A program made the translations under genes and the position numbers. The notes under the pieces were generated by a model. The model saw only the letters and a program-made list of their open reading frames with translations, made no database searches and had not been told where the DNA came from. From Candidatus Alloscillospira sp. (lineage in GTDB: Bacteria; Bacillota; Clostridia; Oscillospirales; Oscillospiraceae): a DNA stretch of 40,061 nt. Shown in pieces: positions 9,298-40,012 of this stretch. The first letter of the stretch is position 1. Every line of letters begins with the position of its first letter. Location of the stretch: positions 1-40,061 of the forward strand of contig JAZRYQ010000020.1 in NCBI GenBank assembly GCA_045600805.1, in the 5' to 3' direction.

Positions 9298-9487
9298 CCT
9301 TGCCTTTATCCTTCTGCTTCTTCGGCTCTGCGTCTAATGTCTTTTCAAGCAGAGCGTTGATGTCCTCGGTAGGTGTCTCATTTTGCAGACAACGGTTTCT
9401 TGTTTCGGCAAGTACACCGATCAGTGTTCTTCGCTCATAATCGTCTACTTCGATCTGGTACTTATTTCCCTTCTTCGTGCAAGTCAT
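9287..9487 (-). CDS. Small conserved hypothetical protein (66 aa)
   Basis: ATGA-coupled to the upstream gene and overlaps the virD4 start by 11 nt. No recognisable motif. Confidence 0.55.
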   Translation of the reverse strand: MTCTKKGNKYQIEVDDYERRTLIGVLAETRNRCLQNETPTEDINALLEKTLDAEPKKQKDKGKDER

Positions 9488-10377: not shown

Positions 10378-11373
10378 TCATCTATCCTCTTTCGTAGATT
10401 TTTTGGGAAGCTGTACGTCCAATCCGGCAACAGATTTTTCCTGCTTTGCCATTTCGGCTCTTGCTTCTTTTTTCTTTTTGATCACGTCCGAAATATCAAC
10501 TCTTCCGTCGGGAGTCTTGTATTCTGCGGATTTCGGCTGTGATGTCAATTCTCCCTCTTGGGGCTTTGGTTCGCTTGACGTCGGGCTCGACATGGTCGAT
10601 GACTTTTCCGTTACCGCCGTGCTGGACTTGTCCGTTTCCTTTGACGGCTTGCCCTCGTCCGTAATGGATTTTTCCGGCAACGGTTCTTCTCGCTCCTGCC
10701 GAGCCATAGTGGGGTTTTCAGTAACCGGCTTTTCTCCGTTCAGAATGGCAAGCTCGTCCATGTTCTGCTCGGCAGAAGGCGGCGTTGCACGTTCCGGCTC
10801 TTCCTTTTCATCGTCATCCCCAACGGTTGCGGTGACGATAGGCGGTTCAACTGTGTTTTCCGGATTTTCCTCCGGCTTCTCATCAACCGTCTGTTCTTCC
10901 TCTTTTTTCTCTGTGGAAGAAGGTGCAGTTTCCGGGGTTTTGTCGTCAGCGGCTTTGCTTTCCTTCTCTTTTTCCATAGAGGTACGAAGATCGGCGGTAT
11001 CATAAGTGGTAAACTTGAAGCGTTCCACGATACGTTTGATTTTGCTTTCGTCGTCGGCTCTGACAAGAACGTCAAACACACCGTCCTTATCATCCTTTTC
11101 TTTCAGCACGGTATAAAGGACACCGTACTCTTTGGCGACTTCCTTAAACTTGGGCAGGTTCTCGCTGTTAAAGGTATAAACCTTCAACGGCTTACCGGAA
11201 CGCAACATATTGCTGAGGCGTTCCTTACCTCTTGTTTTGTTCTGTTCCTTGTAAATGGAATACAAAAGAACAGCGGCATTTTTTGCTCCGCTGCCTGTCA
11301 GCTTGATCAGGACTTCCGCTCCTTCGAGCGACATCCTCATTACCTGCTCGGCAGCATCTCCTGATGCATTCAT
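10378..11373 (-). CDS. pcfB: PcfB-family (DUF3801) protein with a long disordered acidic/Ser/Thr/Pro/Lys-rich tail
   Basis: The N-terminal 125 aa (EQVMRMSLEGAEVLIKLTGSGAKNAAVLLYSIYKEQNKTRGKERL...KVYTF...FKEVAKEYGVLY) match my memory of the PcfB family. Residues from about 130 to 331 are low complexity. Confidence 0.75.
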   Translation of the reverse strand: MNASGDAAEQVMRMSLEGAEVLIKLTGSGAKNAAVLLYSIYKEQNKTRGKERLSNMLRSGKPLKVYTFNSENLPKFKEVAKEYGVLYTVLKEKDDKDGVFDVLVRADDESKIKRIVERFKFTTYDTADLRTSMEKEKESKAADDKTPETAPSSTEKKEEEQTVDEKPEENPENTVEPPIVTATVGDDDEKEEPERATPPSAEQNMDELAILNGEKPVTENPTMARQEREEPLPEKSITDEGKPSKETDKSSTAVTEKSSTMSSPTSSEPKPQEGELTSQPKSAEYKTPDGRVDISDVIKKKKEARAEMAKQEKSVAGLDVQLPKKSTKEDR

Positions 11374-11396
11374 GTTAGAAATACTCCTTTTCTTTG

Positions 11397-11416
11397 GAAA
11401 TTTGCTTGCAAATTTC
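11397..11416 (-). promoter_or_regulatory. Perfect palindromic hairpin immediately 5' of the pcfB SD
   Basis: Minus strand reads CCC-GAAATTTGC-AA-GCAAATTTC-CAAAGAAAAGGAG-N10-ATG. Related elements lie at 24470..24489 and 39200..39221. Confidence 0.6.
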
Positions 11417-11440
11417 GGGCAACCGTAAATTCAGTTGGGC

Positions 11441-12799
11441 TTATCTCATACTACCTCGGTTGCCTGTACTCTCTTTCTTAGTGATTTGTTTTTCTTTCTC
11501 CGTTGTCTTGGATTCGTATCCTCGGTCAATGGTATTGACCACATCCTCAATGGCTCCGCTTCGTGCGGCAATATCTTCGCAAAGCTTCATTTGCTTCCGG
11601 ATCACTGCCATCTGTGCCGTCAAGTCGTAAACGGTTTCCTTGACCGGTTGCATGGCATCACTGTCGTGCATCCTGCGTAACCTGTTTCGATTCTTTGCCC
11701 TCTCATAAGCCAGTGCTTTGAAACGCTCGCTCAGTTCCGCAGTGAACGCTGTCATATCCTCCGATGTTCTGATATTGTGTGCGGCAAGTAACTTTGCTTC
11801 GTCGCTGTACATTTCCATCCGGTTTACATCCTGACGCATTGCCACATACTCCACTCGATTGAACGGACGTACTTCATTCGGGAAGTGCCGAAGCAAATAG
11901 ACATAGTGGTGATACAGCCCGACAATGCCGGTTGCCTTATCCCACTTTTTCAAAGTCGGATAGTATCTCGGCTCCCTCGGTCTGTTCTTGTAATTATCTT
12001 CACACCTTTGTCGGATCTCCGCTTCGGAGTATCCCTCGCCGAGTCTGTCAAGACGGCGGAACTTGGTTCCCTCGTCCGGGCGAATACGGAGAAAGCTTCC
12101 TCGGTATTCAAGCAGATACCCTCGGTTTTGAATCTCCTCGGAAAACTCCCGGAAGCTCGTTGCATATTCCAATACCGCATCAAGATCGGCATACAGATTT
12201 TTCATAATGCCGTTCTTTTCAAGCCATTGGTTATATGGAATCGTGGTGTGACCGGGGTTCTTTATGACGGACAACCCGTAATCCTCGCAAAGGTCATCGG
12301 ACATCTCACGCATCAGATGGTAAGTCCGCTTTTGATCGTAATACCTCTTTCCATCCACGAAAGAAACGCTGTTCAGGCAAAAATGATTATGGAGCTTGCC
12401 TGTGTTTAAATGAGTTGAAACCAAAACCTGAAAGCGATCTCCCCAAAGCTCCTGTGCCAGCTTCACACCGATCTCATGTGCCTGTTCGGGTGTTACTTCA
12501 TCCTCTTTGAAGGACTGGTATCCATGAAAGCATACGATGCCTCCGGTCTTTCCCCAAGTCATTTTCGTGGAAGCGAATTGCTCCGCCGCCATCGCCGGGT
12601 TATCCGAGCAGTTGACTCCCGTCACATAAAACTGTTTCTCGGTCTTCATCGAATCGGAATCGTATTCCATCACATTGTTGACTGCGTGAAATCCTGCCGC
12701 CTTTTCGTACTCTCCGTTCCATGTTTTAACGGGATTAGCGGTATACCTGATAACCGTGTTGGCACTTCCCTTGACGGACCATATTGCCGTGACCGCCAT
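11441..12799 (-). CDS. Relaxase / mobilisation nuclease (452 aa)
   Basis: Relaxase-type N-terminus (MAVTAIWSVKGSANTVIRYTANPVKT) and metal-binding His cluster STHLNTGKLHNHFCLNS, directly downstream of a MobC gene. Confidence 0.88.
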   Translation of the reverse strand: MAVTAIWSVKGSANTVIRYTANPVKTWNGEYEKAAGFHAVNNVMEYDSDSMKTEKQFYVTGVNCSDNPAMAAEQFASTKMTWGKTGGIVCFHGYQSFKEDEVTPEQAHEIGVKLAQELWGDRFQVLVSTHLNTGKLHNHFCLNSVSFVDGKRYYDQKRTYHLMREMSDDLCEDYGLSVIKNPGHTTIPYNQWLEKNGIMKNLYADLDAVLEYATSFREFSEEIQNRGYLLEYRGSFLRIRPDEGTKFRRLDRLGEGYSEAEIRQRCEDNYKNRPREPRYYPTLKKWDKATGIVGLYHHYVYLLRHFPNEVRPFNRVEYVAMRQDVNRMEMYSDEAKLLAAHNIRTSEDMTAFTAELSERFKALAYERAKNRNRLRRMHDSDAMQPVKETVYDLTAQMAVIRKQMKLCEDIAARSGAIEDVVNTIDRGYESKTTEKEKQITKKESTGNRGSMR

Positions 12800-12802
12800 G
12801 GG

Positions 12803-13138
12803 TTAGTCCTCCTGTGAAAACGCCTTTGTGAAAACCTTCTCCAACAAATGAAGCGACTGCACGGCTTCTTTCAGCATCGGTTCATCCACAAAGCCGTGCG
12901 TGTGAATCTTGGCGGCGACTTGATTGACGTTGTTTCCGATGCGGTTAAGCTCCCGGATGATTGCACCGTATTCGGCGGGCGGCGTTTCTTTGATCGTCAT
13001 GCCGGCAATCAACTTACGAAGAACTTGTTCCCGATTCAAAGAAGTGGAAGCTACCAACAAATTGAGGTTCTGATACTCATCATCATTGAGCCAAACCTGA
13101 ATATGGTGAGGATGTGACTTGTTCAAATAGTAGGACAT
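12803..13138 (-). CDS. mobC: MobC-family relaxosome accessory protein (111 aa)
   Basis: Signature LNRIGNNVNQVAAKIH. Right size and position upstream of the relaxase. Confidence 0.85.
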   Translation of the reverse strand: MSYYLNKSHPHHIQVWLNDDEYQNLNLLVASTSLNREQVLRKLIAGMTIKETPPAEYGAIIRELNRIGNNVNQVAAKIHTHGFVDEPMLKEAVQSLHLLEKVFTKAFSQED

Positions 13139-13294
13139 AGCCGTATCAGAGGCAGCGGGGGTATTAGGGGGCGCAGTCCACTCACAAGCGAATTACGAGA
13201 AAAAAGCCGCTTTTGTAGCGGGTTTTGTATCAGTCATTCAGTGCTTGCTAAGACTTAGCGACACCTTTACCCGTTCGCCGCCTCGTTCCTCCTT
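13139..13294 (-). other. Candidate oriT region
   Basis: Largest non-coding gap in the MOB module, upstream of mobC. Minus strand has the inverted repeat AACCCGCT-ACAA-AAGCGGCTT (13224..13204, also followed by a T-run) and, 27 nt 3' of it, ACTGCGCCCCCTAA (13177..13164). That motif resembles the MOBQ-type nic core GTGCGCCCT. Confidence 0.4.
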
Positions 13295-13504
13295 TCAGCG
13301 ACTTTCCCGACTTCTTCTGCTCTTGCTCGGAACGTCCTCTGTCGCTTCAAATTCAACGCCGACAAAATTGTCGGCATCGAGAATATAGTCTTCATTATGC
13401 CAGTTATCCGATGCGATCTGCTCCGCTTCTTCACGGGAATCCGCTTCAATGTCAACGATCATTACAAGAGATTCCGTAATCTTGACCTTAAAATCCTTTG
13501 CCAT
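13295..13504 (-). CDS. DpnD/PcfM-like small protein
   Basis: MAKDFKVKITESLVMIVDIEADSREEAEQIASDNWHNEDYILDADNFVGVEFE matches my memory of the DpnD/PcfM pattern. The start is taken at the internal ATG (13504); the ORF-track start is 13540. Confidence 0.65.
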   Translation of the reverse strand: MAKDFKVKITESLVMIVDIEADSREEAEQIASDNWHNEDYILDADNFVGVEFEATEDVPSKSRRSRESR

Positions 13505-13508
13505 CGTA

Positions 13509-15348: not shown

Positions 15349-15538
15349 CCCTGCCCTTCTCTCTCGAAAGCAGTTCCGCAGAGGAATCTGTCACTTCAAG
15401 GTCGCCCCAAATGACATTCCCCTCACTGATTTTATCCTCTGCCATCGCTTCGGCTTCCTCTTTGGAGTCTGCTTCAACCTCAAAGTATCCGTATTCAAGG
15501 ACACTGATACGGACACCGTATTTCTTTTTGTTACTCAT
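15332..15538 (-). CDS. Second DpnD/PcfM-like small protein (68 aa)
   Basis: YFEVEADSKEEAEAMAEDKISEGNVIWGDLEV parallels VDIEADSREEAEQIASDNWHNEDYILDADNFVGVEF of the 13295..13504 product. Confidence 0.55.
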   Translation of the reverse strand: MSNKKKYGVRISVLEYGYFEVEADSKEEAEAMAEDKISEGNVIWGDLEVTDSSAELLSREKGRDDDGR

Positions 15539-15556
15539 CGTTCTTCCTTTCAGGGA

Positions 15557-18500
15557 TCAACGCTCGTCGATTTCATCATCGGGTTCACGTTCCTCCCGGT
15601 TTTCTTCGGTGCTTCTTTCTTTACTTTCGGGAGCAGAACCGTCGTCCTCTTTTTCTTCATCAACAAGATCGTTTTCGCGCTTGTCCATGTCAAGCTCGGA
15701 GTTGAGTTCATCGAGCCGTTTCATTTTGGCTTCCAGTTCTTCTTCCCTCGGGAACGGTGCTTCGACTTCTGCCTTTGCGTTTTCTATCTGCTTGTGCAGT
15801 TCGGCAAGCTGATCCCTACAGTTTTCAAGCTTCACGGAAAACGACTCAATCATATTGTCAAGACGGGTAATGATACCGTTTGCATCCTGTCCGAGTGAAA
15901 CCTTATGACTCAAAGTACCTTTCAGGTACACAAAGAACTCATGTCCTATCGTATCAAAGCCGATGTCCATTTTGAATCCTCTGTACTCTCCAAGTGGACG
16001 AGGGTCGGGGCTTGTGATCTTCTTACAGATTTCAAGTATTGCTTTACCTGCGTCCGCCTTGACGGTGATTTGCTGTCCCATAACCGTCATCGGTGAAAAG
16101 CCCTTATCATCTTCAAAGGTGTTCTCTTTGGCTCTTTGAATATCTGCCTCGTAACCTGCAATGCGTTCTTCTTTTGCCGAAACCTCTCTCGGATATTCCT
16201 TGAGGAGCTTATCTTCAAGCATATACCTTTGAGACAAGTGTGAGGACTTCTGTAACTTGAGTTTAGCAACGTCCGCGTCAAGCTGCATCTTCTCCATGAT
16301 CTTCGGGTTGCCCGTAGCCAGTGCTTTTATCTCTGCATAGGACAGAGCCGTATCGTCTACGTCCTCCGCACATCGAACCGGGGATTTACTCGTCATGATC
16401 TGCGAAATAAACTTCTGCTTGGATTCAAGCAACTGGTACATATACGCATCGAAGGTTCCTTCGGTGATATATCTGTAAATCTCGACTTCCGGGTTGGAGT
16501 TGCCCTGACGCACAATTCGTCCGAGCCGTTGTTCAAGGTCGGAGGGACGCCAGGGGCAATCAAGGTCATGGAGTGCGATCAAGCGTTCCTGCACATTCGT
16601 GCCGGCTCCCATTTTGAAGGTACTGCCCATGAGCACTCTCACCTGTCCGCTTCTCACCTTTGCAAACAAGTCTTTCTTCTTTACATCGGTATCCGCATCG
16701 TGAATAAATGCAATTTCTTGTTCCGGAATACCCTCGGAAATGAGTTTTTTCCGGATATCGTCGTACACGCTGAACTTGCCATCGTTATGCGGCGTTGACA
16801 AATCGCAGAACACAAGCTGTGCGGATTTCTGCTCGGAAGTCTTATGCCAGACGTCCACCACATTGCGGACGCATTGGTTGACTTTACTGTCAACGAAGTC
16901 TTCGAGCGTGCTGTTGATAAGCCGCTGATCAAGTGCGGCTTTTCGACCGTCGTTCGTGATGAGAAGCATATTGTCTTCATCGGAGGAAACCATGTGTGCA
17001 TGGACTCTCGCTGCTCTGTCGGCAAAGGACTGCACCAGTTCTTTCTGAATGTCGGAGGAAGGAACCTTTACAACGTGGAAGTTTGCTTTCGGGACAGGGA
17101 GGTTCAGCATATCTGCCGTCTGCACATCTGCGACCTCCTTGAACATTGCCATAAGTTCGGGAATGTTAAAGAATTTGGCAAACCTTGTCTTGGCTCGATA
17201 ACCCGAACCGTCCGGTGCAAGCTCAATTGCCGTTAAGGTTTCACCGAAGGTTGATGCCCACGAGTCGAAATTCGTGAGCCCCTTTTCCTTCATAGCGTCA
17301 TACTGAAGATACTTTTGCATGGTATAAAGCTCGACCATCGTATTGCTGATCGGAGTACCGGTCGCAAAGGTTACGCCCTTCCCGCCTGTCAGTTCGTCAA
17401 GATAGCGGCACTTCATATAAAGGTCACTGCTCTTTTGTGCTTCGGTCTGCGAGATACCTGCGACGTTACGCATCTTGGTGTATGCGGCAAGGTTCTTATA
17501 GAAATGCGCTTCATCCACAAAGAGCCGGTCAACACCGAGTTGCTCAAAGGTAACGACGTCATCCTTTCGGCTTCGGTCGTTGAGCTTGTCGAGCTTCTGT
17601 TGAAGTTGCTTTTTGGTTTTCTCCAACTGCTTGATTGTGAATCGCTCTCCGCGTTCATGCTTGAGCGTTTCAATGCTTTCCATGACCTCTTCTATCTCCG
17701 CCTGAATCATTTGCGTCTGCCGTTCAATCGACATCGGGATCTTTTCAAACTGAGAGTGACCGATAATGACGGCATCGTAATCGCCAGTTGCGATTCTCGC
17801 ACAGAATTTCTTACGGTTCTTCGTTTCAAAATCTTTCTTCGTGGCAACAAGGATATTGGCACTCGGATAGAGTTGCAGGTACTCACTTGCCCACTGAGAA
17901 ATAAGGTGGTTCGGGACAACGAACATACTCTTGGAACACAGTCCGATACGCTTCTGCTCCTGTGCGGCGGCAACCATCGTAAAGGTTTTGCCGGCACCGA
18001 CAACATGAGCCAGTAACGTATTGCCTCCGTACATAATACGGGCTACTGCGTCTACCTGATGGTCGCGCAATTTGATTTCCGGCGACATCCCGTAGAATTG
18101 AATGTGTTTACCGCTGTACTCACGGGGACGGATGCTGTTGAACTTTTCGTTGTAGAGCGTACAGAGCCGGTCACGCCGCGCCGGATCTTTCCAGATCCAT
18201 TCTTCAAACTTACGGCGAATCTCTTCCTGCTTGCCCTGTGCAATGGTGGTTTCCTTTTTATTGAGCACCGGCTTTTTGTTGCCGTGTTCATCCTCCACAT
18301 AATCAAACACCCGCACATCCTTGAGGTTCAACGAATCCTCGATGATGTTATAGGCATTGGCTCGTCCTGTTCCGAATACGCTCGTGGCTTTGACGTTGAA
18401 TCGGTCATAGGTCTTATCCGTAATCTGCCACTGTCCGGTGATCGGCTCAAACTTCACTTGAATCCGATACTTGTAATAGTACGGCGTTCCGAGCAATTCA

Positions 18501-21500
18501 TAGACAAACGCCTGAATATCCTCGGGTGGAATCCATGTTGCCCCAAGCCGTACACCGATTTCCGCCGCCGACAAATCCTTTGGCTGTACCTTTTCCAGTG
18601 CTTCAACATTGTCTTTGTAATCATCGGGATATTGTTCGGCACTGCGTCGTGCGACCGCAAGTTTTTCACGGACATTGCCCGACAGGTATTCGTCGGCGGG
18701 CAGATACTTCGGTGTCTTATCGTTGCCGAAGCCGTACAGGGGATTGAGGAAAATGACACCCTTGAGGTCATCAAAGATTTCATCTTCACTCTTTCCGGTC
18801 AGTTCCATCATATAGTCCATATCCACAAACGCTCTCTCACCGAGGGAAACAGCCAGTGCTTCACTTGCCGTATCGGTTTTCTCAACCGATAACTTCGGCT
18901 TGATCGTCCGCTTGGTAAAGATGTCTGCTTTTTCTTTGAGATTTCCTTCCTCGTCAAGCTTTTCAAGAGAACACAAGAGGAAGTAGGCATTATCATCATC
19001 GAATACGGATGCGTTGCCACGGCTGCCCAAGAGCCCGTATTTCGCGGTAAACTTATCGTACTGCTCATTGAGCTTCTGTTGCAGAGCGTGTACCGAACTG
19101 TCGGGATAGTTTTCAAGCTGCGCGTCGATCAGTTCACGAACCGTATCCCGAATGGCTATCATACCCTTGATTCTGTTCTCGCCTGTTGCCGTTGTCTCCA
19201 CCGGCTTCATCATACTGTTCTCGCGGTAATATATCTTACCGTTCACAACTGTGTATGAGAAATTCCGCACATTCGGATCGGCGGGGATCATGCCATCCGC
19301 TTCTTCTCCTGTCAGTTCTTCGGTTTGGATTTCATCAATCTCGGCATGAATATTCGCAACTGCTTCTGCCAGAAGGTCTTCCAGCTTCTCGTCTTCAAAA
19401 GGTCGGCAGCTTGACTGCGGACCGAATGGTCCCGAAACCATTTCCATATTGCCGAGGATCATTTCGGGATGGTCGATAAAGTATTGGTTCATCTCGATCC
19501 CGTTTGCATCGACTCCGAGGTGACACCAATCGGGATCGCATTCGATCACCCTGTCCCGCTTCTGGAGGAAGATGATATCGGCTACCGCTTCCGTTCCGGC
19601 GTTTGCTTTGAATGTGTTGTCGGGAAGTCTGATCGCTCCGAGAAAATCTGCTCTTGCGGCGATATACTTACGCACAGAAGCGTTCTGCTTGTCCATTGTG
19701 CCTTTACTGGTGATAAAGGCGATCACGCCACCGGGGCGTACTTGGTCAAGTGCCTTTCCGAAGAAGTAATCGTGAATGAGGAAGTTGTGCTTGTCGTATT
19801 TCTTATCCTGCACCTTAAACTGACCGAACGGCACGTTGCCGATTGCCACATCGAAGAAGCTATCCGGGAAGGAAGTGTTTTCAAAACCGCTGACCGTGAT
19901 GTTCTGCTTTTGATATAACTGCTGTGCAATACGTCCACTTATCGAATCAAGTTCGACACCGTAGAAGCGGGATTCGCTCATTGACTCGGGAACAAGTCCC
20001 ATAAAGTTGCCGACACCGCAGGACGGTTCAAGGATATTGCCACGGGTAAAGCCCATATTTGAAAGTGCCTTGTAGATTCCGTTGATCACGACAGGCGGCG
20101 TGTAAAATGCCGTCAGCGTGCTTTCTCTTGCGGCGGCATATTCGTCTTCGGTAAGCAGTTCTTTCAGTTCCGAATAGTGCGGACTGTCTTCTTCAAAACA
20201 ATCTGCAAGGCTGCCCCAGCCAACGTAACCGGCAAGGATTTTCTGCTCATTTTCATCGGCGAGTCTGTCTTCGCTTTCCAGTTTTTTCAACAGTCGAATG
20301 GCATCGACGTTTGCCTGATACTTCTCTACCGCTTTAAATGCAGTACCTTCATAGTCCGCCGTCTGAATACGGTAATCAAGCTTTTCGTCATACGGCACTT
20401 CCGGATGGAAAGCCGTAATCGCTTTTTTCGGCTTCGGCTTTTCTTCCTGCATGGTCGGCATTTCAGAGAATTCTTCGTCAGCGTCGGGCGCATTGCCCGG
20501 AAACATCCGGTATCCGTCTGCTCCTAACTCTGCTTCATATACGTCGCCCGCCTTCTCTGCTTCAAGATTTGAAATATAAGTTTCGATCTCACGGTCAATC
20601 TTATTGAGGTTTTCGGGAGTAAATTCCACATAGTCCGGCTCTGTTTCAAAGGTAGCCATCGCTTGCGTAAAATACGGTGTCCGTTCATTGGCAAGCTCAC
20701 AATCCGCCATCTCGCTGATACTCTCCACGAAAGCGTCAAGCTGTTCGCTGTCGGCAAAATCCCCCTCGTGACTTACAAAATCATCATACGCTTCTTTGAA
20801 AACGGAGAATGCGAGAGTGCTTGTAACAAACTGTCCGCCATCGGTTGCGTCCGGATTGTAATAAATCCAATAGAGTTCTTCTTTCGTTGAATCAAGGAAA
20901 ATGTGCGTTTCGTCGGAGATATTGGTTTTCGACTCTTTGATGGAAGACCAATACGCTTCAAGCGAATCGTAGATGTCAATTCGATAATCGGCTTCCGTCA
21001 ACTGTCTCAGGTATTTTTCCTGTACATGATTCGGAATACCGCACATCGGAACACGCTCGCCGTTTTCCATCTGCCTTGTTGTCAGCGTCAATCCGAGAAG
21101 ATTTGCGGCAGCTTGAGCTTCTTCACCGAGAAATTCAAGGAAGTCACCGACTATAACGGCTTTGATCCTCTTGATTTCCTTCTTCGGCTCATCCATTACC
21201 TCTGCTGTCGGCAGTTCAATCGGCTCGTGATAAATGAATGACTCATTCAACGGGTTCTCTTTGACACGACGGACAAACACATCAAGCGGCATTTCCATCG
21301 GGATCAGTGTGCCGTCAAACAACGATACTTCACCGTTTGTCGCCGACATCAACTGCACTTCGTCTTTCCCGATATGGAGCCAATCGCCGAGCTTCATGTC
21401 CAAACCGTGCTTTTTGAAATCCACATCGACCGTCGGCTCTTCCGCCGCAGGTTCTGCGGCTCGCAAAGCGATTTGCTCTCCCGGCTCGGGCTTGTGCTTT

Positions 21501-24448
21501 CTGTAAGACGAATGCGGGAACAGATCATACTTTCCGTTATCGAACTTGATAAGGTCTTCAAGAACCTTTTTATCATGATCGTAATATCTGCTACCCGGCA
21601 TTTCGCTGTCGAACACTTCCTGCATGGAAGCAATCAACTCACGGAGTTTTTCCTTGTCCTCCAGAAGAGGGATAATCTCTTCGGTTTTATCCTCAAAGAA
21701 GCTGTCCTTTTCCATGCTGAACGGTCTTGCCACATCTGACGGTTTTCCCGAATAGAAGCCCTGCACTCCCTGTGCAAGGATCGACAGTTCGTACCGGTCA
21801 AGCGATGCCGCTTCTTTCGGAGTCAGGTATCTGTTCTCTTTTATAAGAGCCGCGATGCGATTGGCAACCTGTGTCCAACTCATAAGAATGTCCCTGTGAT
21901 CAAACTTGTCAAGTCCGCCGGCAATCGCCAAGCCCTTCCCGTCGTGGTTTTCATTCACTCGTGAAGTGGAAGATCCGCCGATTCCATATTCGTTTGACAG
22001 GAACTTGGCTCTTTCCCCGTTGTCCTTGTGGTTAAGAAAAAAAGAGTAAATACGGTACTTTCCCTCGCTGATACTGCTGCCTTGCCGAATCAGATTGTTA
22101 TCAATCTGGTCTTGCGAGAGATAGTGTTCGGGAGGAAGTACATATTCTTCCTGCGGGTACTCCATCGGATCTCTGCGGTAACTGTTGACAAGCATCTTGA
22201 CAAACTGCGGCGTATATCCGTCCCGTCTGCGCGGATTCTCTGTCATTTCATCTACTGCCTTTTCAAAAGCCGGAATGAACTGTTCGGCTCTTTCCGGTTT
22301 ATTCAAGGTCGCATAAAAAGAAACCACCTGCTCCGGATACCCATTATCTGTCGGTTCAAACGGAAGCTTGGCATCCCGGAAGAAATCCCTGTAAACATTG
22401 GTCAGCCGTTCAGCAACGTCCTTGTTGTAGATACCGATTGCCCTCGGCACATCATCTTTGGAGATATACTGACCGAGTTCGATCAGTTGTCGGATACGGC
22501 TATCCATCTCCGCCCATGTGAGCGTTGACGTTCTCCATGCCTTTGCCACACTGTCGCCGGTTGAGAAAGTAACGCCGTCCTCATTCCATGACACCGCACA
22601 TTTCTGCCCGTTGACGATCAATCCAACAGCGTCGCTTTCATATTCGGCACGGAGATAACGGATATTTTCCTCCTGATTGTTTGCTCGGAGATAATACCCA
22701 TATATACGGTAGTTGCTGTTTTTCGTGCAACCGCCGAGACGAAGAAAACCGTCAATGACCTCCTGCGAAACGCAGAGATCTGTCCGGGGTTTCGGTGCAT
22801 CAATCGGCTTTGGCTTTTCAACTACAACTTCTGTCGGCTTTTCTTCTTTCAAGTCCGGCATCTTTTCTACTTTGGGATCAAGGTAGTTATTATCCTTGAT
22901 CAGTGCTTCGATCAGCGTTCTGGTCAAGTCCCAACTGAATGTCGCACTTGCTGACGGGTTCAGGAAAGTGCCACGAAATAAATGAAGACCGTCATCAAAA
23001 AGTCCGCTGTATCCGAGATAATCATCTTTGTTTTCATCTTTCCAAAAACTGATTGTGGCTTTCGGGAAGCACTCCCGGATATAATCGTTCTTTCTCTGCT
23101 CATTCTTTTCCCCGGACAGAAAAAGCACAATGTCTTCCTTACTGTGCGTAAGGTCATCACTGTGCTTTAAGATTTTGATCATTTCCTCCGGCAAAAGGAA
23201 TGCGGGAGGTTCTTCTTTTTGTGGCTCGTCGGTTATGCGTAAATATGATTTATTTAACAATAAATCAGTTCGCTCAGAACCGTCTCCTCCGCCGAAGCTT
23301 TGATGTTGTTCATCTCCTGTACCCACAGCATCTGATCCTTGGCTTTCAGCGATTCGTTGATCCCACGGCTCGTCGCCATTTGGTTCATAAGGCGCGAAAG
23401 CATCGTCTTCGCCTCCAGGTCGATCTTGTGCAGATACTCGTTCAGGCGGAACTGCGTCAGAAGCGTCGTATAGGTTCCCTTCCGGTGTTCCTTGATGAAT
23501 TGCAGTCTCAGGTCGCCGTACTTCCCGATTGGGTAATTCGTCTGCTCCGGCACTTTCAGTTCGGGATACAGCATCCCGTCTGTCCCCTCGCGGTAAGTCA
23601 GATTCAGTTTTTCCATATTCTTGTCCTCCTTGATCGGTAGTTTTTTCTTTTTCAGCACTATTGTATTCCTTTTCTTTTTTCTCGTCAAATGTGCGAATTT
23701 CTTTTTCGCAGTTTTTGACCGTTCGCTCAATATCCCGCAAAACCACCTGTGCAATATCGCTTGTCGCATTACCGAGCAGGTTAATGGTTTCGGGGGTGTC
23801 GAACTCCCACAGACTGTCAAAGTCCACATCCCCAAGGTACAGATCTGCGTCAGCCCCCAGTCTCGTCAACACCGTATAGGCAACGCTGATTCCAAGCAAC
23901 GGCTGAAATCTTGCACGGATATTATCCTCATCAAGCCCCTCAAGGTTACTGTTTTCTGTAAGTGAGAGCAGATCAGCCATATAGTCGGTCATGTTATCCT
24001 GTACCGCATTTCTGCAAGCGGATTCTACGGCAATAAAGAATTCGTCTGTGTCTTCCAGTTCGCCGAAACGGTTTTCCAGAGAATCAAGAACATCGTCTTT
24101 GTATTCGTCTTTGAGCTTCCACAGGTTCAACTGTTCGCCGTGACGACCGTGGGTATCCGCCACGTCGAAGACATAGCGGATACCGGTGTACGTGCCTTTG
24201 TCCTGAATCAATGCAATCCCCTTTGCGTTTCGATTTACCCATCGGTCAAAGGTTTTATTCCACATTTCAAGTTCGGCACATGCGGTTGCATTCGGACGCT
24301 GAGCAAAAATGAGAACCTGATCGGAAAAAGGATACTTATACTGAAATGCCGCCGTTTTTAAGAAGCCGCACCATGTTTCAAGCGTATCCGTTAAGATACC
24401 AAGCTGACGGTCATATACTTCTCGAATCAAGTCTATTTTTCTCGGCAT
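15557..24448 (-). CDS. Giant polyvalent protein (2963 aa): ArdC-N-like, duplicated unknown domain, MutS-domain-I-like, N6-adenine DNA methyltransferase, SNF2/DEAD-like helicase, coiled-coil acidic tail
   Basis: Single uninterrupted ORF. Motifs located on the DNA: MTase motif I EPSCGVGNFMG (19998..20029), motif IV GNVPFG (19823..19840); helicase Walker A VVGAGKTF (17981..18004), DEAH VDEAHFYKN (17492..17518), motif VI QRLGRIVRQG (16501..16530). Confidence 0.9.
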   Translation of the reverse strand: MPRKIDLIREVYDRQLGILTDTLETWCGFLKTAAFQYKYPFSDQVLIFAQRPNATACAELEMWNKTFDRWVNRNAKGIALIQDKGTYTGIRYVFDVADTHGRHGEQLNLWKLKDEYKDDVLDSLENRFGELEDTDEFFIAVESACRNAVQDNMTDYMADLLSLTENSNLEGLDEDNIRARFQPLLGISVAYTVLTRLGADADLYLGDVDFDSLWEFDTPETINLLGNATSDIAQVVLRDIERTVKNCEKEIRTFDEKKEKEYNSAEKEKTTDQGGQEYGKTESDLPRGDRRDAVSRTESAGADELPNREVRRPETAIHQGTPEGNLYDASDAVPPERVSAQDRPGGEDDAFAPYEPNGDEPWDQRIAESQGSDAVGTGDEQHQSFGGGDGSERTDLLLNKSYLRITDEPQKEEPPAFLLPEEMIKILKHSDDLTHSKEDIVLFLSGEKNEQRKNDYIRECFPKATISFWKDENKDDYLGYSGLFDDGLHLFRGTFLNPSASATFSWDLTRTLIEALIKDNNYLDPKVEKMPDLKEEKPTEVVVEKPKPIDAPKPRTDLCVSQEVIDGFLRLGGCTKNSNYRIYGYYLRANNQEENIRYLRAEYESDAVGLIVNGQKCAVSWNEDGVTFSTGDSVAKAWRTSTLTWAEMDSRIRQLIELGQYISKDDVPRAIGIYNKDVAERLTNVYRDFFRDAKLPFEPTDNGYPEQVVSFYATLNKPERAEQFIPAFEKAVDEMTENPRRRDGYTPQFVKMLVNSYRRDPMEYPQEEYVLPPEHYLSQDQIDNNLIRQGSSISEGKYRIYSFFLNHKDNGERAKFLSNEYGIGGSSTSRVNENHDGKGLAIAGGLDKFDHRDILMSWTQVANRIAALIKENRYLTPKEAASLDRYELSILAQGVQGFYSGKPSDVARPFSMEKDSFFEDKTEEIIPLLEDKEKLRELIASMQEVFDSEMPGSRYYDHDKKVLEDLIKFDNGKYDLFPHSSYRKHKPEPGEQIALRAAEPAAEEPTVDVDFKKHGLDMKLGDWLHIGKDEVQLMSATNGEVSLFDGTLIPMEMPLDVFVRRVKENPLNESFIYHEPIELPTAEVMDEPKKEIKRIKAVIVGDFLEFLGEEAQAAANLLGLTLTTRQMENGERVPMCGIPNHVQEKYLRQLTEADYRIDIYDSLEAYWSSIKESKTNISDETHIFLDSTKEELYWIYYNPDATDGGQFVTSTLAFSVFKEAYDDFVSHEGDFADSEQLDAFVESISEMADCELANERTPYFTQAMATFETEPDYVEFTPENLNKIDREIETYISNLEAEKAGDVYEAELGADGYRMFPGNAPDADEEFSEMPTMQEEKPKPKKAITAFHPEVPYDEKLDYRIQTADYEGTAFKAVEKYQANVDAIRLLKKLESEDRLADENEQKILAGYVGWGSLADCFEEDSPHYSELKELLTEDEYAAARESTLTAFYTPPVVINGIYKALSNMGFTRGNILEPSCGVGNFMGLVPESMSESRFYGVELDSISGRIAQQLYQKQNITVSGFENTSFPDSFFDVAIGNVPFGQFKVQDKKYDKHNFLIHDYFFGKALDQVRPGGVIAFITSKGTMDKQNASVRKYIAARADFLGAIRLPDNTFKANAGTEAVADIIFLQKRDRVIECDPDWCHLGVDANGIEMNQYFIDHPEMILGNMEMVSGPFGPQSSCRPFEDEKLEDLLAEAVANIHAEIDEIQTEELTGEEADGMIPADPNVRNFSYTVVNGKIYYRENSMMKPVETTATGENRIKGMIAIRDTVRELIDAQLENYPDSSVHALQQKLNEQYDKFTAKYGLLGSRGNASVFDDDNAYFLLCSLEKLDEEGNLKEKADIFTKRTIKPKLSVEKTDTASEALAVSLGERAFVDMDYMMELTGKSEDEIFDDLKGVIFLNPLYGFGNDKTPKYLPADEYLSGNVREKLAVARRSAEQYPDDYKDNVEALEKVQPKDLSAAEIGVRLGATWIPPEDIQAFVYELLGTPYYYKYRIQVKFEPITGQWQITDKTYDRFNVKATSVFGTGRANAYNIIEDSLNLKDVRVFDYVEDEHGNKKPVLNKKETTIAQGKQEEIRRKFEEWIWKDPARRDRLCTLYNEKFNSIRPREYSGKHIQFYGMSPEIKLRDHQVDAVARIMYGGNTLLAHVVGAGKTFTMVAAAQEQKRIGLCSKSMFVVPNHLISQWASEYLQLYPSANILVATKKDFETKNRKKFCARIATGDYDAVIIGHSQFEKIPMSIERQTQMIQAEIEEVMESIETLKHERGERFTIKQLEKTKKQLQQKLDKLNDRSRKDDVVTFEQLGVDRLFVDEAHFYKNLAAYTKMRNVAGISQTEAQKSSDLYMKCRYLDELTGGKGVTFATGTPISNTMVELYTMQKYLQYDAMKEKGLTNFDSWASTFGETLTAIELAPDGSGYRAKTRFAKFFNIPELMAMFKEVADVQTADMLNLPVPKANFHVVKVPSSDIQKELVQSFADRAARVHAHMVSSDEDNMLLITNDGRKAALDQRLINSTLEDFVDSKVNQCVRNVVDVWHKTSEQKSAQLVFCDLSTPHNDGKFSVYDDIRKKLISEGIPEQEIAFIHDADTDVKKKDLFAKVRSGQVRVLMGSTFKMGAGTNVQERLIALHDLDCPWRPSDLEQRLGRIVRQGNSNPEVEIYRYITEGTFDAYMYQLLESKQKFISQIMTSKSPVRCAEDVDDTALSYAEIKALATGNPKIMEKMQLDADVAKLKLQKSSHLSQRYMLEDKLLKEYPREVSAKEERIAGYEADIQRAKENTFEDDKGFSPMTVMGQQITVKADAGKAILEICKKITSPDPRPLGEYRGFKMDIGFDTIGHEFFVYLKGTLSHKVSLGQDANGIITRLDNMIESFSVKLENCRDQLAELHKQIENAKAEVEAPFPREEELEAKMKRLDELNSELDMDKRENDLVDEEKEDDGSAPESKERSTEENREEREPDDEIDER
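16450..18080 (-). other. SNF2-family helicase core (approximate bounds)
   Basis: Walker A, DEAH and motif VI, as listed for the giant ORF. Confidence 0.8.
19450..20340 (-). other. N6-adenine DNA methyltransferase domain (approximate bounds)
   Basis: SAM-binding motif I (GVGNF) and catalytic motif IV (NVPFG, the NPPY-type variant) in gamma-class order. Confidence 0.8.
20966..21175 (-). other. MutS domain-I-like module within the giant protein
   Basis: IVGDFLEFLGEEAQAAANLLGLTLTTRQMENGERVPMCGIPNHVQEKYLRQLTEADYRIDIYD aligns by eye to E. coli MutS [62 protein letters not shown]. The Phe-x-Glu motif is retained. Confidence 0.6.
23254..23616 (-). CDS. tnpV: TnpV-family protein (120 aa) encoded in the +1 frame inside the giant ORF
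   Basis: AAGGAGG lies 8 nt upstream of the ATG at 23616 and the stop is TAA at 23254. The product MEKLNLTYREGTDGMLYPELKVPEQTNYPIGKYGDLRLQFIKEHRKGTYTTLLTQFRLNEYLHKIDLEAK...SLKAKDQMLWVQEMNNIKASAEETVLSELIYC carries the hallmarks I recall for TnpV (PIGKYG, HR.GTYTTLLT, RLNEYL, WVQEMNN, AEE.VL.E.IY). The overlapping frame of the giant ORF encodes only a low-complexity linker here. Confidence 0.6.
   Translation of the reverse strand: MEKLNLTYREGTDGMLYPELKVPEQTNYPIGKYGDLRLQFIKEHRKGTYTTLLTQFRLNEYLHKIDLEAKTMLSRLMNQMATSRGINESLKAKDQMLWVQEMNNIKASAEETVLSELIYC
23850..24448 (-). other. ArdC-N-like domain of the giant protein (approximate bounds)
   Basis: FSDQVLIFAQRPNATACAELEMWNKTFDRWVNRNAKGIALI. Paralogous to the 9484..10374 product. 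Confidence 0.6.
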
Positions 24449-24469
24449 ATAGGTTTTCTTTTTTTATCG

Positions 24470-24540
24470 GCACTTTGTTTACAAAGTGCGGTGTGAAACC
24501 ATCTGCACAATAGATTGTGATGAGTCTTCATGTTTCACAC
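24470..24540 (-). promoter_or_regulatory. Two-hairpin intergenic element upstream of the giant ORF
   Basis: Minus strand has GTGTGAAAC (24540..24532), a 32-nt spacer beginning ATGAAGA, then GTTTCACAC (24499..24491). A perfect palindrome GCACTTTGT-AA-ACAAAGTGC (24489..24470) follows, then an A-rich leader and the ATG at 24448. Confidence 0.6.
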
Positions 24541-24542
24541 TG

Positions 24543-24887
24543 TTACCTTTCTTTTGATTTTTCTTTCTTTACGGGGTACGCTTTCATATAGTCATCAAGC
24601 GTCATCGTCTCTCCTGTATAGTTCCAGTCTTCCTCGGGATCAATATCCAAATAGCCGTCACCGTCAAGGTCAATGGGCTTGTTCGTAATCAGCGTCCCCC
24701 AGTGATTGACCATAATGCTCCTTGCGATTTGACAAGGATCACCGTTTCCGTAATCGTCCTCACGGACTTCATAACGGAAATATCCTTTGGGAACTGTATC
24801 CAGATCCACTCTGAGGTTTGTGAAAAGCATGGGACGGTCAAAGAGTTCCACGATTTCATAGGTTTCTTCCCTTGCGTCAACTCTCAT
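24543..24887 (-). CDS. Small polyvalent-protein-type domain protein (LPD-like, 114 aa)
   Basis: ATGA-coupled to the upstream gene. The pattern LFDRPMLFTNLRVDLDTVPKGYFRYEVREDD...VNHWGTLIT resembles a large-polyvalent-protein-associated domain as I remember it. Not verified. Confidence 0.5.
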   Translation of the reverse strand: MRVDAREETYEIVELFDRPMLFTNLRVDLDTVPKGYFRYEVREDDYGNGDPCQIARSIMVNHWGTLITNKPIDLDGDGYLDIDPEEDWNYTGETMTLDDYMKAYPVKKEKSKER

Positions 24888-28110: not shown

Positions 28111-28351
28111 CGGCATCCTCCTTGTTTTCGTTTTCTCCCGGCTTTGCGTTTTCGTCAATGAGGTAAGCAAGCAGTTTGTTTGACTTTACCGCCTGCATAC
28201 ACTCAAGAACGCTGACAAGGTCAAGGCGGCAACAGCGAGGCAGCTTAACGGCATCGTTTATCGTAAGCGAAGCGATCTGCTTCTCTTCCTTAAAACCGGC
28301 TTCGATCAGATTTTTCAAAATGGCAACGTGCTTGTAGTTTACAGAAGCCAT
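28079..28351 (-). CDS. Hypothetical small protein (90 aa)
   Basis: ORF sharing one nucleotide (28351) with the upstream gene. No motif recognised. Confidence 0.5.
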   Translation of the reverse strand: MASVNYKHVAILKNLIEAGFKEEKQIASLTINDAVKLPRCCRLDLVSVLECMQAVKSNKLLAYLIDENAKPGENENKEDADEIGENRSVE

Positions 28352-37863: not shown

Positions 37864-39182
37864 TCGTTGATCTCCTTTCCTGCCGTTTCGCCGGCTGTGT
37901 ATTTTTCAAGAAGCTCCTGCGGTACACCGCCGCGCATCAACTTGTTTTTGAGCGAGTCTGAAATGGTGTTTTCCTTTACGAACTCACCTTCAATGTGGTA
38001 TTTTCCGTTATCGTATTCGTTACTGCGGATCTTGTAACGCCAAAGCTTGCGGTAATCGAGATCGCCGTTATCGTCTACAACACATTCGGAAATATCCATA
38101 ACCTTTCGGGAATTATCCTCAAGCTTGTGGGCAAACACAACGATCGGAAACGCCAGCGCCGCCTGTTGGAGCGACTGCCTTTCAAAGTTTCCGTATGCAA
38201 GCGATGCGATACGACGATGCGCAAATCGTCCTCCGCCGCCGTGAACGGTAGACACAACCGTATGGTCTGTGGAGCTTGCTTCGATCGCATAATATGCTTC
38301 TTTGTTTCGCATCTCACCGACGCAGATAACGTCAGGATCGAAACGAAGAGCAGCCATGACAAGGTCATCCTGTGAAATGTTGTAGGACGGATTATCCGAA
38401 GGTCGGGAAAGCGTATGAACGACGTTATTGATAACTGCACCGTTCTCGTCTCTCTTTACAAGGGACAATTCTCTTGCACCGCTTTCAATCGTGTAGATAC
38501 GTTTATTATCGGGGATTCCGGCGAGCAAGGCGTTCAGCAGGGTGGTTTTACCGGAAGAGGTTCGACCTGCAACAACGAAGGACACGCCGTATCGGATGCA
38601 GGTTTCGAGAAAGCCAAGCATTTCTTCTGTCAATGCCTCGGTGCGGATCAGGTTTTCCCTGTCCACTCTCTGCGGATGAAGCATACGAATGGAAACTGCG
38701 ATACCCCTGTCAGCATCCACAATCGGATCTTTGAGTGCCGTTACACGGGTGTTGTTGGGGAGATGCCCCTGTGCCATCGGCGCGGCATTGTCAATAATCA
38801 TACCGGAATGCTGCAACAGTTTCTTTACAACGTCGGTTGCGTGTTGCGGACTGAAAAAGAACTCGGTCGCCTTTTCGATATATCCGTTCAAATGCGTGAC
38901 GGCAATATCGTCCCATCCGTTGATGTTCACTTCTTCAACGTCCGGATCAGTCAGATATTTTGTCAATACCGAATACTCCGCCATTTCGGAATACAATCGG
39001 TCAACGAGCTTTCTTGTGTCATACCCCGCAACCGTATATCCGGTATCGTAGAGGTACTGCGAGATATACGATTTCAGTTCGGCTACCTTGGTTTTGTCGA
39101 TCAGAGCCGTGGCATATTTTCGGGAAATGAACTGCTGTACATTGCCGGCAAGAGTTGCCAAATCTATCTGTGCCACGATCAA
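37860..39182 (-). CDS. cpaF: CpaF/TadA-family secretion ATPase (VirB11-like superfamily)
   Basis: Walker A VVAGRTSSGKTTLLNAL, Asp/Walker B box DVICVGEMR, His box VVSTVHGG. The codon at 39182 is TTG; the GTG at 39176 has better spacing from GGCGGTGA. Confidence 0.88.
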   Translation of the reverse strand: MIVAQIDLATLAGNVQQFISRKYATALIDKTKVAELKSYISQYLYDTGYTVAGYDTRKLVDRLYSEMAEYSVLTKYLTDPDVEEVNINGWDDIAVTHLNGYIEKATEFFFSPQHATDVVKKLLQHSGMIIDNAAPMAQGHLPNNTRVTALKDPIVDADRGIAVSIRMLHPQRVDRENLIRTEALTEEMLGFLETCIRYGVSFVVAGRTSSGKTTLLNALLAGIPDNKRIYTIESGARELSLVKRDENGAVINNVVHTLSRPSDNPSYNISQDDLVMAALRFDPDVICVGEMRNKEAYYAIEASSTDHTVVSTVHGGGGRFAHRRIASLAYGNFERQSLQQAALAFPIVVFAHKLEDNSRKVMDISECVVDDNGDLDYRKLWRYKIRSNEYDNGKYHIEGEFVKENTISDSLKNKLMRGGVPQELLEKYTAGETAGKEINE

Positions 39183-39199
39183 TCACCGCCTTTCTTTGG

Positions 39200-39270
39200 C
39201 AAGTTGTGCTTGCACAACTTGGGGGTGAAACAAGATAACTTACGATATTTTGTTTTCTTCATGTTTCACC
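39200..39270 (-). promoter_or_regulatory. Two-hairpin intergenic element upstream of cpaF (homologous to 24470..24540)
   Basis: Minus strand has GGTGAAAC (39270..39263), a 31-nt spacer beginning ATGAAGA, then GTTTCACC (39231..39224). A perfect palindrome CAAGTTGTGC-AA-GCACAACTTG (39221..39200) follows, then CCAAAGAAAGGCGGTGA and the start codon. Confidence 0.6.
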
Positions 39271-40012
39271 CTTTCACCTTCTCTGCAATCATTCCGACAA
39301 CCTGCATGAAACGGCGGTCTTTCAATTCCTCGCTGACGGTTCCTTCCAGAGACTGCTCTGCAAGTGCCGAACTGAACGGAAGCGTGAAAGCAATCTTTCC
39401 GAGATGTCCCCTGACATCCGAAACCGGCATGGCAAACGCCTGAACGGGCGTATTGATCACCGTAATTTGCGTCTGCGGCATATAGCCGTTGCTCATAAAG
39501 TGTTTGCCCTGCGACATGGAATAGGACAGACATTTCAGATCCGGTGTGGTCAAGCGAATGCTTTGATCCGCTTCAAGCAAAGCGGTTTCCGCAAGAATGC
39601 TGTCGGCAGGATTTGTCATGCAGTCGATGATGGCGTAGTCGGTATTGGCGACGAGGATATTCAGAAAAGTCCGTGCCTTTTCCTGATTGTATTCGGGATG
39701 GCTGTGACAATTCTCGTTCTCTTTGTAGCCGATAACACCCAAGTTTTCTTTGCCTTTAATCAGCGTAGTATAGCTGAAAATATCATCCGCCGTAATGGTT
39801 GTTTTGGCGAGCAAGTCGCCGAGGGAATAGATGTCGTCCGAACGATACATAGGAAAGACAACAGGCATGGAGGGCGCTGTTACATCGGTCAACACAACAA
39901 CCACCTTTACTTGCTTTCTCCTGCCCGACTGGTAGAGAGATTCGGCAAGCTTCATCGAAAATGCCGTCTTTCCGCTGTTCGGAGTCCCCCAAACTGCTAT
40001 CATCTTACCCAT
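39266..40012 (-). CDS. CpaE/TadZ-like ParA/MinD-family ATPase
   Basis: Deviant Walker A IAVWGTPNSGKTAFSMKLA, positioned immediately upstream of cpaF. GGAGG lies 6 nt upstream of the ATG at 40012; the ORF-track start is 40039. Confidence 0.7.
   Translation of the reverse strand: MGKMIAVWGTPNSGKTAFSMKLAESLYQSGRRKQVKVVVVLTDVTAPSMPVVFPMYRSDDIYSLGDLLAKTTITADDIFSYTTLIKGKENLGVIGYKENENCHSHPEYNQEKARTFLNILVANTDYAIIDCMTNPADSILAETALLEADQSIRLTTPDLKCLSYSMSQGKHFMSNGYMPQTQITVINTPVQAFAMPVSDVRGHLGKIAFTLPFSSALAEQSLEGTVSEELKDRRFMQVVGMIAEKVKG

Follow-up and report, generated by a model that had tools for sequence, protein, structure and literature searches.

Small interspersed structured repeats such as BOX, ERIC, BIME and Correia elements insert in operons, where they give upstream genes stop codons, create mini-ORFs (ORF, open reading frame) and alter mRNA stability or processing (PMC3049150). 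Here we describe three segments whose closest known relatives are repeats of this kind (BOX, ERIC, REP, Correia). They are found in a 40,061-nt stretch of DNA from Candidatus Alloscillospira sp. (assembly GCA_045600805.1, contig JAZRYQ010000020.1, positions 1 to 40,061), which is called the window below. The window is a 40-kb integrative conjugative element (ICE) of the gut Clostridia type, with every gene on the minus strand. Each segment contains two hairpins and an A-rich tail and is located at a gene junction: between the LPD28 gene and a giant gene (copy 1), between the TadZ/ParA-like gene and cpaF (copy 2), and between the relaxase gene and the DUF3801/PcfB gene (copy 3). Like the pneumococcal BOX/RUP/SPRITE, the enterobacterial ERIC and BIME/REP and the neisserial Correia elements, the copies are about 100 nt long, form hairpins, are co-transcribed and lie at gene ends. 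As in the BOX, ERIC, REP and Correia families, empty sites are present in close relatives.

Architecture of the three copies

In all three copies, a stem of 8-9 bp (H1) closes a loop of 31-32 nt and is followed, after a 1-nt spacer, by a perfect palindrome of 9-10 bp with AA at its centre (H2). An A-rich tail of 21-23 nt, which in most copies bears a Shine-Dalgarno (SD) sequence, then runs up to the start codon of the next gene. The distance from the 5' arm to this start codon is 92-95 nt across the three copies, all of which are on the gene-sense strand. The double hairpins of copies 1 and 2 had been described in an earlier reading of the letters (the original prediction) and were confirmed when the minus strand was read. 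Copy 3 (11464-11374, minus strand) was located by scanning for structures in which a tight palindrome comes after a long-loop stem. All window coordinates below also refer to features of the minus strand.

Copy 1 is an 89-nt segment (24450..24538) between the LPD28 stop codon and the ATG of the giant gene, delimited by pairwise alignment with L070, the locus of the closest relative, which is without it. The whole gap between the two genes is 94 nt (24449-24542). H1 (24491..24540) has a 9-bp stem, GTGTGAAAC (24540-24532) with GTTTCACAC (24499-24491), and a 32-nt loop; its outermost 2 bp are formed by the flank bases 24540-24539. A single C separates H1 from H2 (24470..24489), which is the perfect palindrome GCACTTTGT-AA-ACAAAGTGC. 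The tail CGATAAAAAAAGAAAACCTAT (24449..24469) is A-rich, 21 nt long, has no clear SD and extends to the giant ORF ATG at 24448.

Copy 2 (39176..39272) is a 97-nt segment which, in the alignment, takes the place of the 4-nt GTAA of two 95%-identical relatives (L081 and L183). H1 (39223..39271) pairs GGGTGAAAC (39271-39263) with GTTTCACCC (39231-39223) around a 31-nt loop, and H2 (39200..39221) is CAAGTTGTGC-AA-GCACAACTTG. The insert brings a new TGA stop for the TadZ-like gene, the SD GGCGGTGA and the G of the cpaF GTG, and thereby changes the cpaF start from ATG to GTG. Comparison with relatives places the true start of cpaF at this GTG (39176, MAQIDLATLAGN) and not at the TTG at 39182.

Copy 3 (11374..11465) is a 92-nt segment aligned in place of the 6-nt TGAAAG of the sister loci L184 and L185, and has the layout GGCAACCG-N31-CGGTTGCC-C-GAAATTTGC-AA-GCAAATTTC-CAAAGAAAAGGAGTATTTCTAAC-ATG. 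H1 (GGCAACCG/CGGTTGCC, 11418..11464) has a 31-nt loop containing TAG, TGA and TAA in the three frames; H2 (GAAATTTGC-AA-GCAAATTTC) occupies 11397..11416, and the tail CAAAGAAAAGGAGTATTTCTAAC (11374..11396) carries the SD AAGGAG 9 nt upstream of the DUF3801 ATG. The relaxase reads through the 5' arm, so that its C-terminus is STGNRGSMR instead of STER.

Copies 1 and 2 are related, as had been proposed. The 14-mer GTGAAACATGAAGA occurs in the window only at these two copies, and the arm pair GTGAAAC-N15-45-GTTTCAC was found twice against 0.01 expected. The tails of copies 2 and 3 have CCAAAGAAA(A)GG in common. Overall, the copies are ~40-60% identical to one another. The H2 core is semi-conserved (TNTGY-AA-RCANA), and H2 of copy 3 is a third distinct sequence with the same centre, TGY-AA-RCA. 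A strict descriptor, which required a perfect 8-bp outer stem and a perfect 9-bp palindrome with a 2-nt centre, matched three times, each time on the sense strand, whereas 1000 dinucleotide shuffles averaged 0.001 matches. With copy 1 as its sole training sequence and with filters off, a covariance model had copies 2 and 3 as its top non-self matches in the window (33.7 bits, E 7e-5, and 26 bits, E 2e-3, respectively).

The stem covariation noted for copies 1 and 2 is strengthened by copy 3, whose outer arms have nothing in common with those of the other copies and yet are fully paired. On the model-based alignment, which comprises three copies and is fitted to the structure, 53 of 53 pair cells were Watson-Crick; 12 of the 18 pairs were changed on both sides and none on one side only. 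Pairing fell to 25-44% in controls with slid partners. There was no G-U pair among the 54 pairs over all copies. The regions of copies 1 and 2 folded as RNA with z = -3.2 relative to shuffles. As single-stranded DNA (ssDNA), z was -3.8 to -5.7 on either strand, with values around -5.5 for the regions of copies 1 and 2, and both strands folded equally well. We conclude that the hairpins, and not the peptides of the mini-ORFs described below, are the conserved feature. Because no G-U pair occurs despite replacement of 12 of the 18 pairs, and because the two strands are equally stable as folded ssDNA, the hairpins probably act first of all at the DNA level, being recognised or generated as single-stranded or cruciform DNA, with mRNA effects as a consequence. 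The absence of G-U favours DNA-level pairing, pairing on both strands, or a templated process which keeps the palindromes perfect.

H2 is followed by a C-C/G-A-rich sequence (CCAAAGAAA or CGATAAAA) without a U-tract, and scans of the gene-sense strand of all three copies gave no terminator-like or promoter-like site. Since no copy has a U-tract or a terminator signal, intrinsic termination was rejected, in agreement with the original prediction.

Occupied and empty junctions

Sister elements (79-95% protein identity) have a stop/start junction of 0-5 nt at each of the three sites. For the LPD28-giant junction, 29 loci from GTDB (37-62% identity) and 11 loci of the closest database relatives (L070-L080, 66-79% LPD28 identity) were retrieved. 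In the GTDB loci where the giant gene follows LPD28, the gap is short, has a strong SD and holds no copy 1; in 11 of 11 loci of the closest relatives, a gap of 4-24 nt precedes ATGCCGAGAAAA, again without copy 1. In the pairwise alignment, the L070 junction reads GGTAATAGT directly followed by TATGCCGAG, and the window reads GGTAACAGT, then the 89 nt GTGAAAC...AAAACCTA, then TATGCCGAG. At the TadZ-CpaF junction, copy 2 is missing from five of five relatives (L081 and L183 at 95%, L082-L084 at 70-81%), in which the junctions overlap or measure 4 nt. Both close relatives at the relaxase-DUF3801 junction (L184 and L185, 90%) have an ATGA overlap and no copy 3. L081 and L184 were from the same sample and look like one sister ICE without copies 2 and 3.

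The flanks at each indel are collinear on both sides with 81-91% nucleotide identity, which identifies the copies as clean insertions rather than imported patches of divergent sequence. Three gains in this lineage are far more parsimonious than precise losses repeated in all relatives. On this sequence comparison, the copies are recent lineage-specific insertions and not an ancestral regulatory RNA. Such presence/absence polymorphism, with filled and empty sites in close relatives, is also seen with miniature inverted-repeat transposable elements (MITEs) and interspersed repeats. As the flanks are close to those of the sisters but the copies differ so much from one another, the copies cannot have diverged in place and came from different sources. 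The original prediction had implied a conserved cis-regulatory element of these operons, and had itself named their absence from equivalent junctions of related elements as the finding that would speak against it; a bare stop/start is present at these junctions in all relatives read, and this part of the prediction is not supported.

Other structured inserts were observed in the relatives, a 97-nt one between cpaF and the next gene (L084:3621-3717) and a 127-nt one between DUF3801 and the next gene (L186:4994-5120, also in L187 and L189-L192). At the corresponding sites of the window, the genes overlap or are 3 nt apart. These inserts display a second architecture, in which a tight hairpin of 10-12 bp is followed by an 8-11 bp stem around two small hairpins and then by an SD tail that reaches up to the ATG. 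L084 and L186-L192 share this architecture but are unrelated in sequence. Insertions of this sort thus recur within the ICE family. In L084, the tight hairpin has the native junction sequence TGAAAGATGA, as in L082, for its 5' arm, and for this reason a contribution of fold-back or template-switch synthesis is possible.

Toxin-antitoxin pairs are found at differing operon junctions of this family as well: RelB/ParE in the window (5482-6131) and in L184 (11396-11943), and Gp49/HTH_3 in L186 and L187 (L186:3237-3886). Gene junctions seem to act as general hot spots for small insertions in this ICE family. Three further gaps of the window, 180-208 nt long (15349-15556, 9298-9483 and 28171-28350), contain apparent unlisted small ORFs and no hairpin cassettes; sister L184 annotates genes of 69 and 66 amino acids at the equivalent positions.

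Of the genes next to the copies, LPD28 (24543-24887) is upstream of the giant gene (15557-24448), whose product is a polyvalent protein of 2963 amino acids with MutS domain I, an Eco57I-like methylase and an SNF2 helicase. The TadZ/ParA-like gene (39266-40039) and the gene of the CpaF/TadA ATPase (37860-39176) belong to a Tad-like pilus locus. MobC (12803-13138) and the relaxase (11441-12799) are encoded upstream of DUF3801/PcfB (10378-11373). The window also encodes a pCF10-like type IV secretion set (PrgI, a VirB4-like ATPase, TrbL and a coupling protein), a DUF3991-Toprim primase and an Xer-like tyrosine recombinase (139-1068). Among the LPD28-bearing loci, L010, L014, L019, L022 and L025 are in metagenome-assembled genomes labelled Prevotella, Bacteroidales, Bacteroides uniformis and Oxalobacter. 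The presence of Firmicutes-type LPD28 loci in those genomes is probably due to binning contamination, or possibly to cross-phylum carriage.

Upstream of mobC, a 370-nt region (13139-13508) contains a DpnD/PcfM small gene, long inverted repeats and the motif ACTGCGCCCCC, which we take to be similar to the MOBQ nick sequence. This region is the probable origin of transfer (oriT), and the gene-sense strand would then be the transferred strand, an assignment that we make tentatively.

Translation signals and candidate explanations

Every copy carries stop codons in all three frames, which are closed within 12-60 nt of the 5' end. With the 5' arm starting at nt 1, these codons are TGA (nt 4), TGA (nt 11) and TAA (nt 60 in copy 1, nt 30 in copy 2) for copies 1 and 2, and TAG (nt 12), TGA (nt 17) and TAA (nt 22) for copy 3. 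The upstream reading frame terminates ahead of H1 at copy 1, within the 5' arm of H1 at copy 2 and within the H1 loop at copy 3. At its 3' end, every copy comes to within 1 nt of the downstream start codon. Copies 2 and 3 have a good SD 6-9 nt upstream of the start (GGCGGTGA and AAGGAG), and copy 1 has none. The sense orientation together with the SD-bearing tails shows that only cassettes compatible with operon translation survive.

Both mini-ORFs of the original prediction exist. Mini-ORF 1 (24433..24531, 32 codons and a stop) begins 11 nt past the LPD28 stop and terminates 13 nt beyond the ATG of the giant gene. Its placement would be suited to termination-reinitiation, and because copy 1 separates the native SD from the ATG, translation of the giant protein probably depends on this bridge. 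Mini-ORF 2 (39179..39262, 27 codons and a stop) begins 3 nt past the stop of the TadZ-like gene and terminates 2 nt short of the corrected cpaF start at 39176, and not at or past the start as had been stated. Copy 3 has no such mini-ORF; the relaxase reads in and stops in the loop, and a start codon is missing.

Taking the observed architecture, covariation, insertion status and retained translation signals together, we think it quite possible, though far from assured, that the copies are structure-defined miniature insertion cassettes (~86-93 nt net) which are tolerated at operon stop/start junctions. They would have landed recently and independently at three junctions, within the short space that separates a stop codon or SD from the following start codon. 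The 5' part of a cassette would terminate the upstream ORF in any frame by its three-frame stops, the middle would consist of the two perfect hairpins, and the 3' part would supply an A-rich linker with a new SD whose end abuts the downstream start codon. With three-frame stops and a ribosome-binding site supplied anew, the operon would stay expressed. In copies 1 and 2, the short ORF would be translated as a bridge from the upstream stop to the downstream start, a role with which its distances to these codons agree. Secondarily, RNA processing or stability effects are possible as a consequence of insertion. By analogy with REP, BOX and ERIC, transcribed copies would act as an intercistronic stem-loop module which uncouples translation of the neighbouring cistrons and may stabilise the upstream segments. 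As the origin of the cassettes we infer a varied pool of elements that are mobile or recombine.

Several observations weigh against the cassette explanation. The known copies are three only, and a single 40-kb contig contains them all. A relaxed descriptor, a three-sequence covariance model and a survey of intergenic gaps revealed no additional copy in 263 kb of related ICE loci. Searches of larger collections used exact patterns or blastn, which are blind to relatives in structure only. Blastn of the three copies against PLSDB plasmids gave only chance matches of 19-38 nt. In IMG/VR, GTGAAACATGAAR-N-GTTTCAC gave four chance matches, and TGCAAGCA-N-CCAAAGAAA and TTTGYAARCAAA-N-AAAGAAA gave chance matches only, with palindromes of 7 bp or less. 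The JGI metagenomes, searched with the copy-1/2 pattern only (GTGAAACATGAAGA-N-GTTTCAC), gave 36 matches, all in unrelated heptamer-palindrome arrays from soil. Among the window proteins there is no transposase, RAYT, integron integrase or HUH transposase, but only the Xer-like tyrosine recombinase. Terminal inverted repeats and a target-site duplication are absent, and the copies are far too divergent for a recent burst from a single master. At copies 2 and 3, the bases at the junction (4-6 native bases) are replaced rather than simply split. The 5' arm of copy 2 is similar to native GGTGA-N3-4-ATG junctions, which makes its left boundary ambiguous.

The JGI arrays just mentioned (L034-L069) are on soil and rhizosphere contigs of high GC, lie at gene ends and consist of large palindromic series of heptamer-like units (GTGAAACGTGAAGAC GTGAAACATGAAGA and so on, mirrored); they are unrelated to the cassettes.

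A wider version of the cassette explanation, which we consider unlikely, is that the copies represent a new class of structure-specific mobile cassettes ("portable intercistronic junctions") in conjugative elements of gut Firmicutes. Such cassettes would be moved by a hairpin-recognising ssDNA enzyme, for example an HUH relaxase/transposase or an attC-like system in a phylum thought to be integron-free, and would target overlapping stop/start junctions; the three-frame stops and the ribosome-binding site would let the operons survive. The inserts of L084 and L186-L192 would then be a sister family.

A rather doubtful alternative is an adaptive cis-acting RNA module, acquired by recombination, which would either mark an intercistronic site of processing or stability or uncouple translation, and would so set the relative expression of relaxase/PcfB, LPD28/giant and TadZ/CpaF. 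Every copy is indeed on the sense strand at a cistron boundary, covariation is strong, and ribosomes terminating upstream would open H1. Stable hairpins followed by a single-stranded A-rich stretch, an SD and a start codon are the typical layout of processed polycistronic mRNA, known from the puf, pap and malEFG-REP intercistronic stem-loops and from RNase Y sites. However, none of the relatives has kept the module at the same junctions, and the sister ICEs work with overlapping stop/start codons. With 12 of 18 positions diverged, the complete absence of G-U is unexpected for stems selected as RNA only. Nor does a known RNA family account for the copies: Rfam gave no match at the gathering threshold over the whole window or in the relatives L084 and L186, a permissive scan of 24350-24650 returned only snoRNA-type noise (E of 2 or more), and ARAGORN detected neither tRNA nor tmRNA. 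The three copies have no alternative pairing or switch in common, and an RNA thermometer or SD-sequestering switch was rejected because complementarity between the 3' arm and the SD exists only in copy 2. A retron was rejected in the absence of a reverse transcriptase.

The perfect Watson-Crick stems and the ssDNA folding would also agree with a function in conjugation or rolling-circle replication, either as priming sites of the single-strand initiation (ssi) or single-strand origin (sso) type for the DUF3991-Toprim primase or as secondary relaxase sites. The orientation of the copies is uniform, the element encodes both primase and relaxase, and the probable oriT, judged by its likeness to the MOBQ nick sequence, would make the gene-sense strand the transferred one. 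We consider such a function improbable: sister elements without any copy are presumably transferable, the stem sequences differ among copies and would thus hardly suit a single primase or relaxase with sequence specificity, and the exact placement at start codons is left unexplained. Known sso elements are longer than 130 nt and have RSB and conserved motifs such as CS-6 TAGCGT. The copies are smaller (a structure of ~70 nt), direct reading found no TAGCGT in any of them, and an ssoA-type origin was rejected. The original prediction had also suggested promoters active in ssDNA form, which are unlikely if the gene-sense strand is, as tentatively assigned, the transferred strand. A Frpo-type ssDNA promoter was rejected on this ground and because the stems are too short for -35 and -10 boxes.

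Equally improbable is a mutational by-product without selected function, in which fold-back or template-switch synthesis creates and perfects quasi-palindromes, so that the apparent covariation would need no selection. Perfect stems free of G-U are what such synthesis would leave. In addition, the copy 1 stem reaches 2 bp into the native flank, the 5' arm of the L084 hairpin is native (TGAAAGATGA) and that of copy 2 is like a native GGTGA-N-ATG junction. On the other hand, the sister junctions lack the 5' arms seen in copies 1 and 3, and nowhere else in the ICE is there a source for the loops, H2 and tails, since blastn-short against the ICE and its relatives returned nothing beyond chance 10-14-mers. 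The geometry and H2 centre shared by three inserts, and the shared CCAAAGAAA tail, would be hard to produce independently. A long target-site duplication of the purine-rich flank was rejected, as the similarity (12/17) is at copy 3 only and is of generic ribosome-binding-site composition.

A role of the mini-ORFs as genes for functional peptides, basic and with Cys, or for regulatory leaders is very improbable; leader-peptide-coupled translation control had been raised by the original prediction. Two copies do have an ORF that starts from a conserved ATG just past the upstream stop and ends at the downstream start, and the two peptides share [LI]CK[QH] and a K-rich tail. These residues are encoded by the palindrome centre TGY-AA-RCA and the A-rich tail, which explains the similarity, and the 3' arm of H1 is translated in different frames in copies 1 and 2. 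No such ORF is present in copy 3, and neither Pfam nor NCBIfam matched the peptides. For mini-ORF 1, phmmer against 1.84 billion representative proteins gave two marginal matches to long repetitive proteins and no credible homologue. An ORF in all copies with homologues elsewhere, as expected for a conserved small protein or leader peptide, was thus not found. A type I toxin was rejected because the peptides are basic rather than hydrophobic. The mini-ORFs are at most translated bridges and probably not functional peptides.

Double-stranded operators, with H2 (a 9-2-9 palindrome) and the H1 arms as sites for dimeric regulators, are most unlikely even though the palindromes are perfect and the H2 core T-N-T-G-Y AA R-C-A-N-A is semi-conserved, because the copies lie inside operons with no promoter-like site on the gene-sense strand, the outer half-site positions differ completely between copies, and the sister ICEs lack the copies; we agree with the original prediction that a single shared sequence-specific operator is improbable.

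If the cassette explanation is right, tightly coupled conjugation operons can absorb insertions at the 1-2 bases between stop and start when the insert brings its own translation signals, which would be a natural counterpart to synthetic intercistronic insulators. It would also point to an unrecognised set of elements in gut Clostridia whose structure is conserved while their sequence is free to vary, and which sequence-based repeat finders would miss. Perfect covariation, when seen in only a few hairpin copies, is not sufficient evidence of a conserved regulatory RNA; here the comparison with empty sites in sisters changed the interpretation.

Comparison with known systems

The BOX, ERIC, REP and Correia families are recognised by sequence across many copies, whereas the window copies share geometry and almost no sequence. 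Unlike these families, the copies end within ~1 nt of the downstream start codon and have a built-in SD. They also differ from MITE-type repeats, which have terminal inverted repeats and target-site duplications; a MITE was rejected because the ends of copy 1 (5' GTGAAAC... and ...AAAACCTA 3') are not inverted repeats and no flank is duplicated.

Like the copies, integron attC sites measure 57-141 nt, lie between consecutive genes and keep a folded single-strand structure with little sequence conservation; the three copies, too, keep their structure while the sequence varies. In each of them, the basal stem has an attC-like AAC...GTT core at its inner end. However, GTGAAAC/GTTTCAC and GGCAACCG/CGGTTGCC miss the R''/R' consensus RYYYAAC/GTTRRRY at its Y/R positions, extrahelical bases are absent, a second independent palindrome is present and the insert carries no gene. 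The window encodes no integron integrase (IntI), its tyrosine recombinase (139-1068) scoring 53.9 bits against the TIGR02249 cutoff of 265. An attC site was rejected on the consensus and the missing IntI.

The PATEs of IS200/IS605 and the REP/RAYT systems resemble the copies in having no terminal inverted repeats or target-site duplication, recognisable hairpins, strand-specific insertion and a length of ~100 nt. PATE and REP elements have similar hairpins at both ends and conserved guide/target tetranucleotides (5' GTAG in REP). The copies, in contrast, have two unlike hairpins with variable stems, and their left flanks (..CAGT, ..GTGAA and ..GTAC) contain no common target. Unlike in those systems, no TnpA or RAYT is encoded in the window, a comparison that covers the window proteins only. 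With dissimilar H1 and H2, no common flank motif and no HUH transposase among these proteins, both possibilities were rejected.

Like the stem-loops of Rhodobacter puf, E. coli malE-malF REP and pap, the copies form stable intercistronic hairpins without a U-tract, and by analogy they would be expected to block 3'-5' exonucleases and so give segmental stability. The puf, malE-malF and pap stem-loops are conserved in their operons, whereas the copies are recent insertions absent from sister elements.

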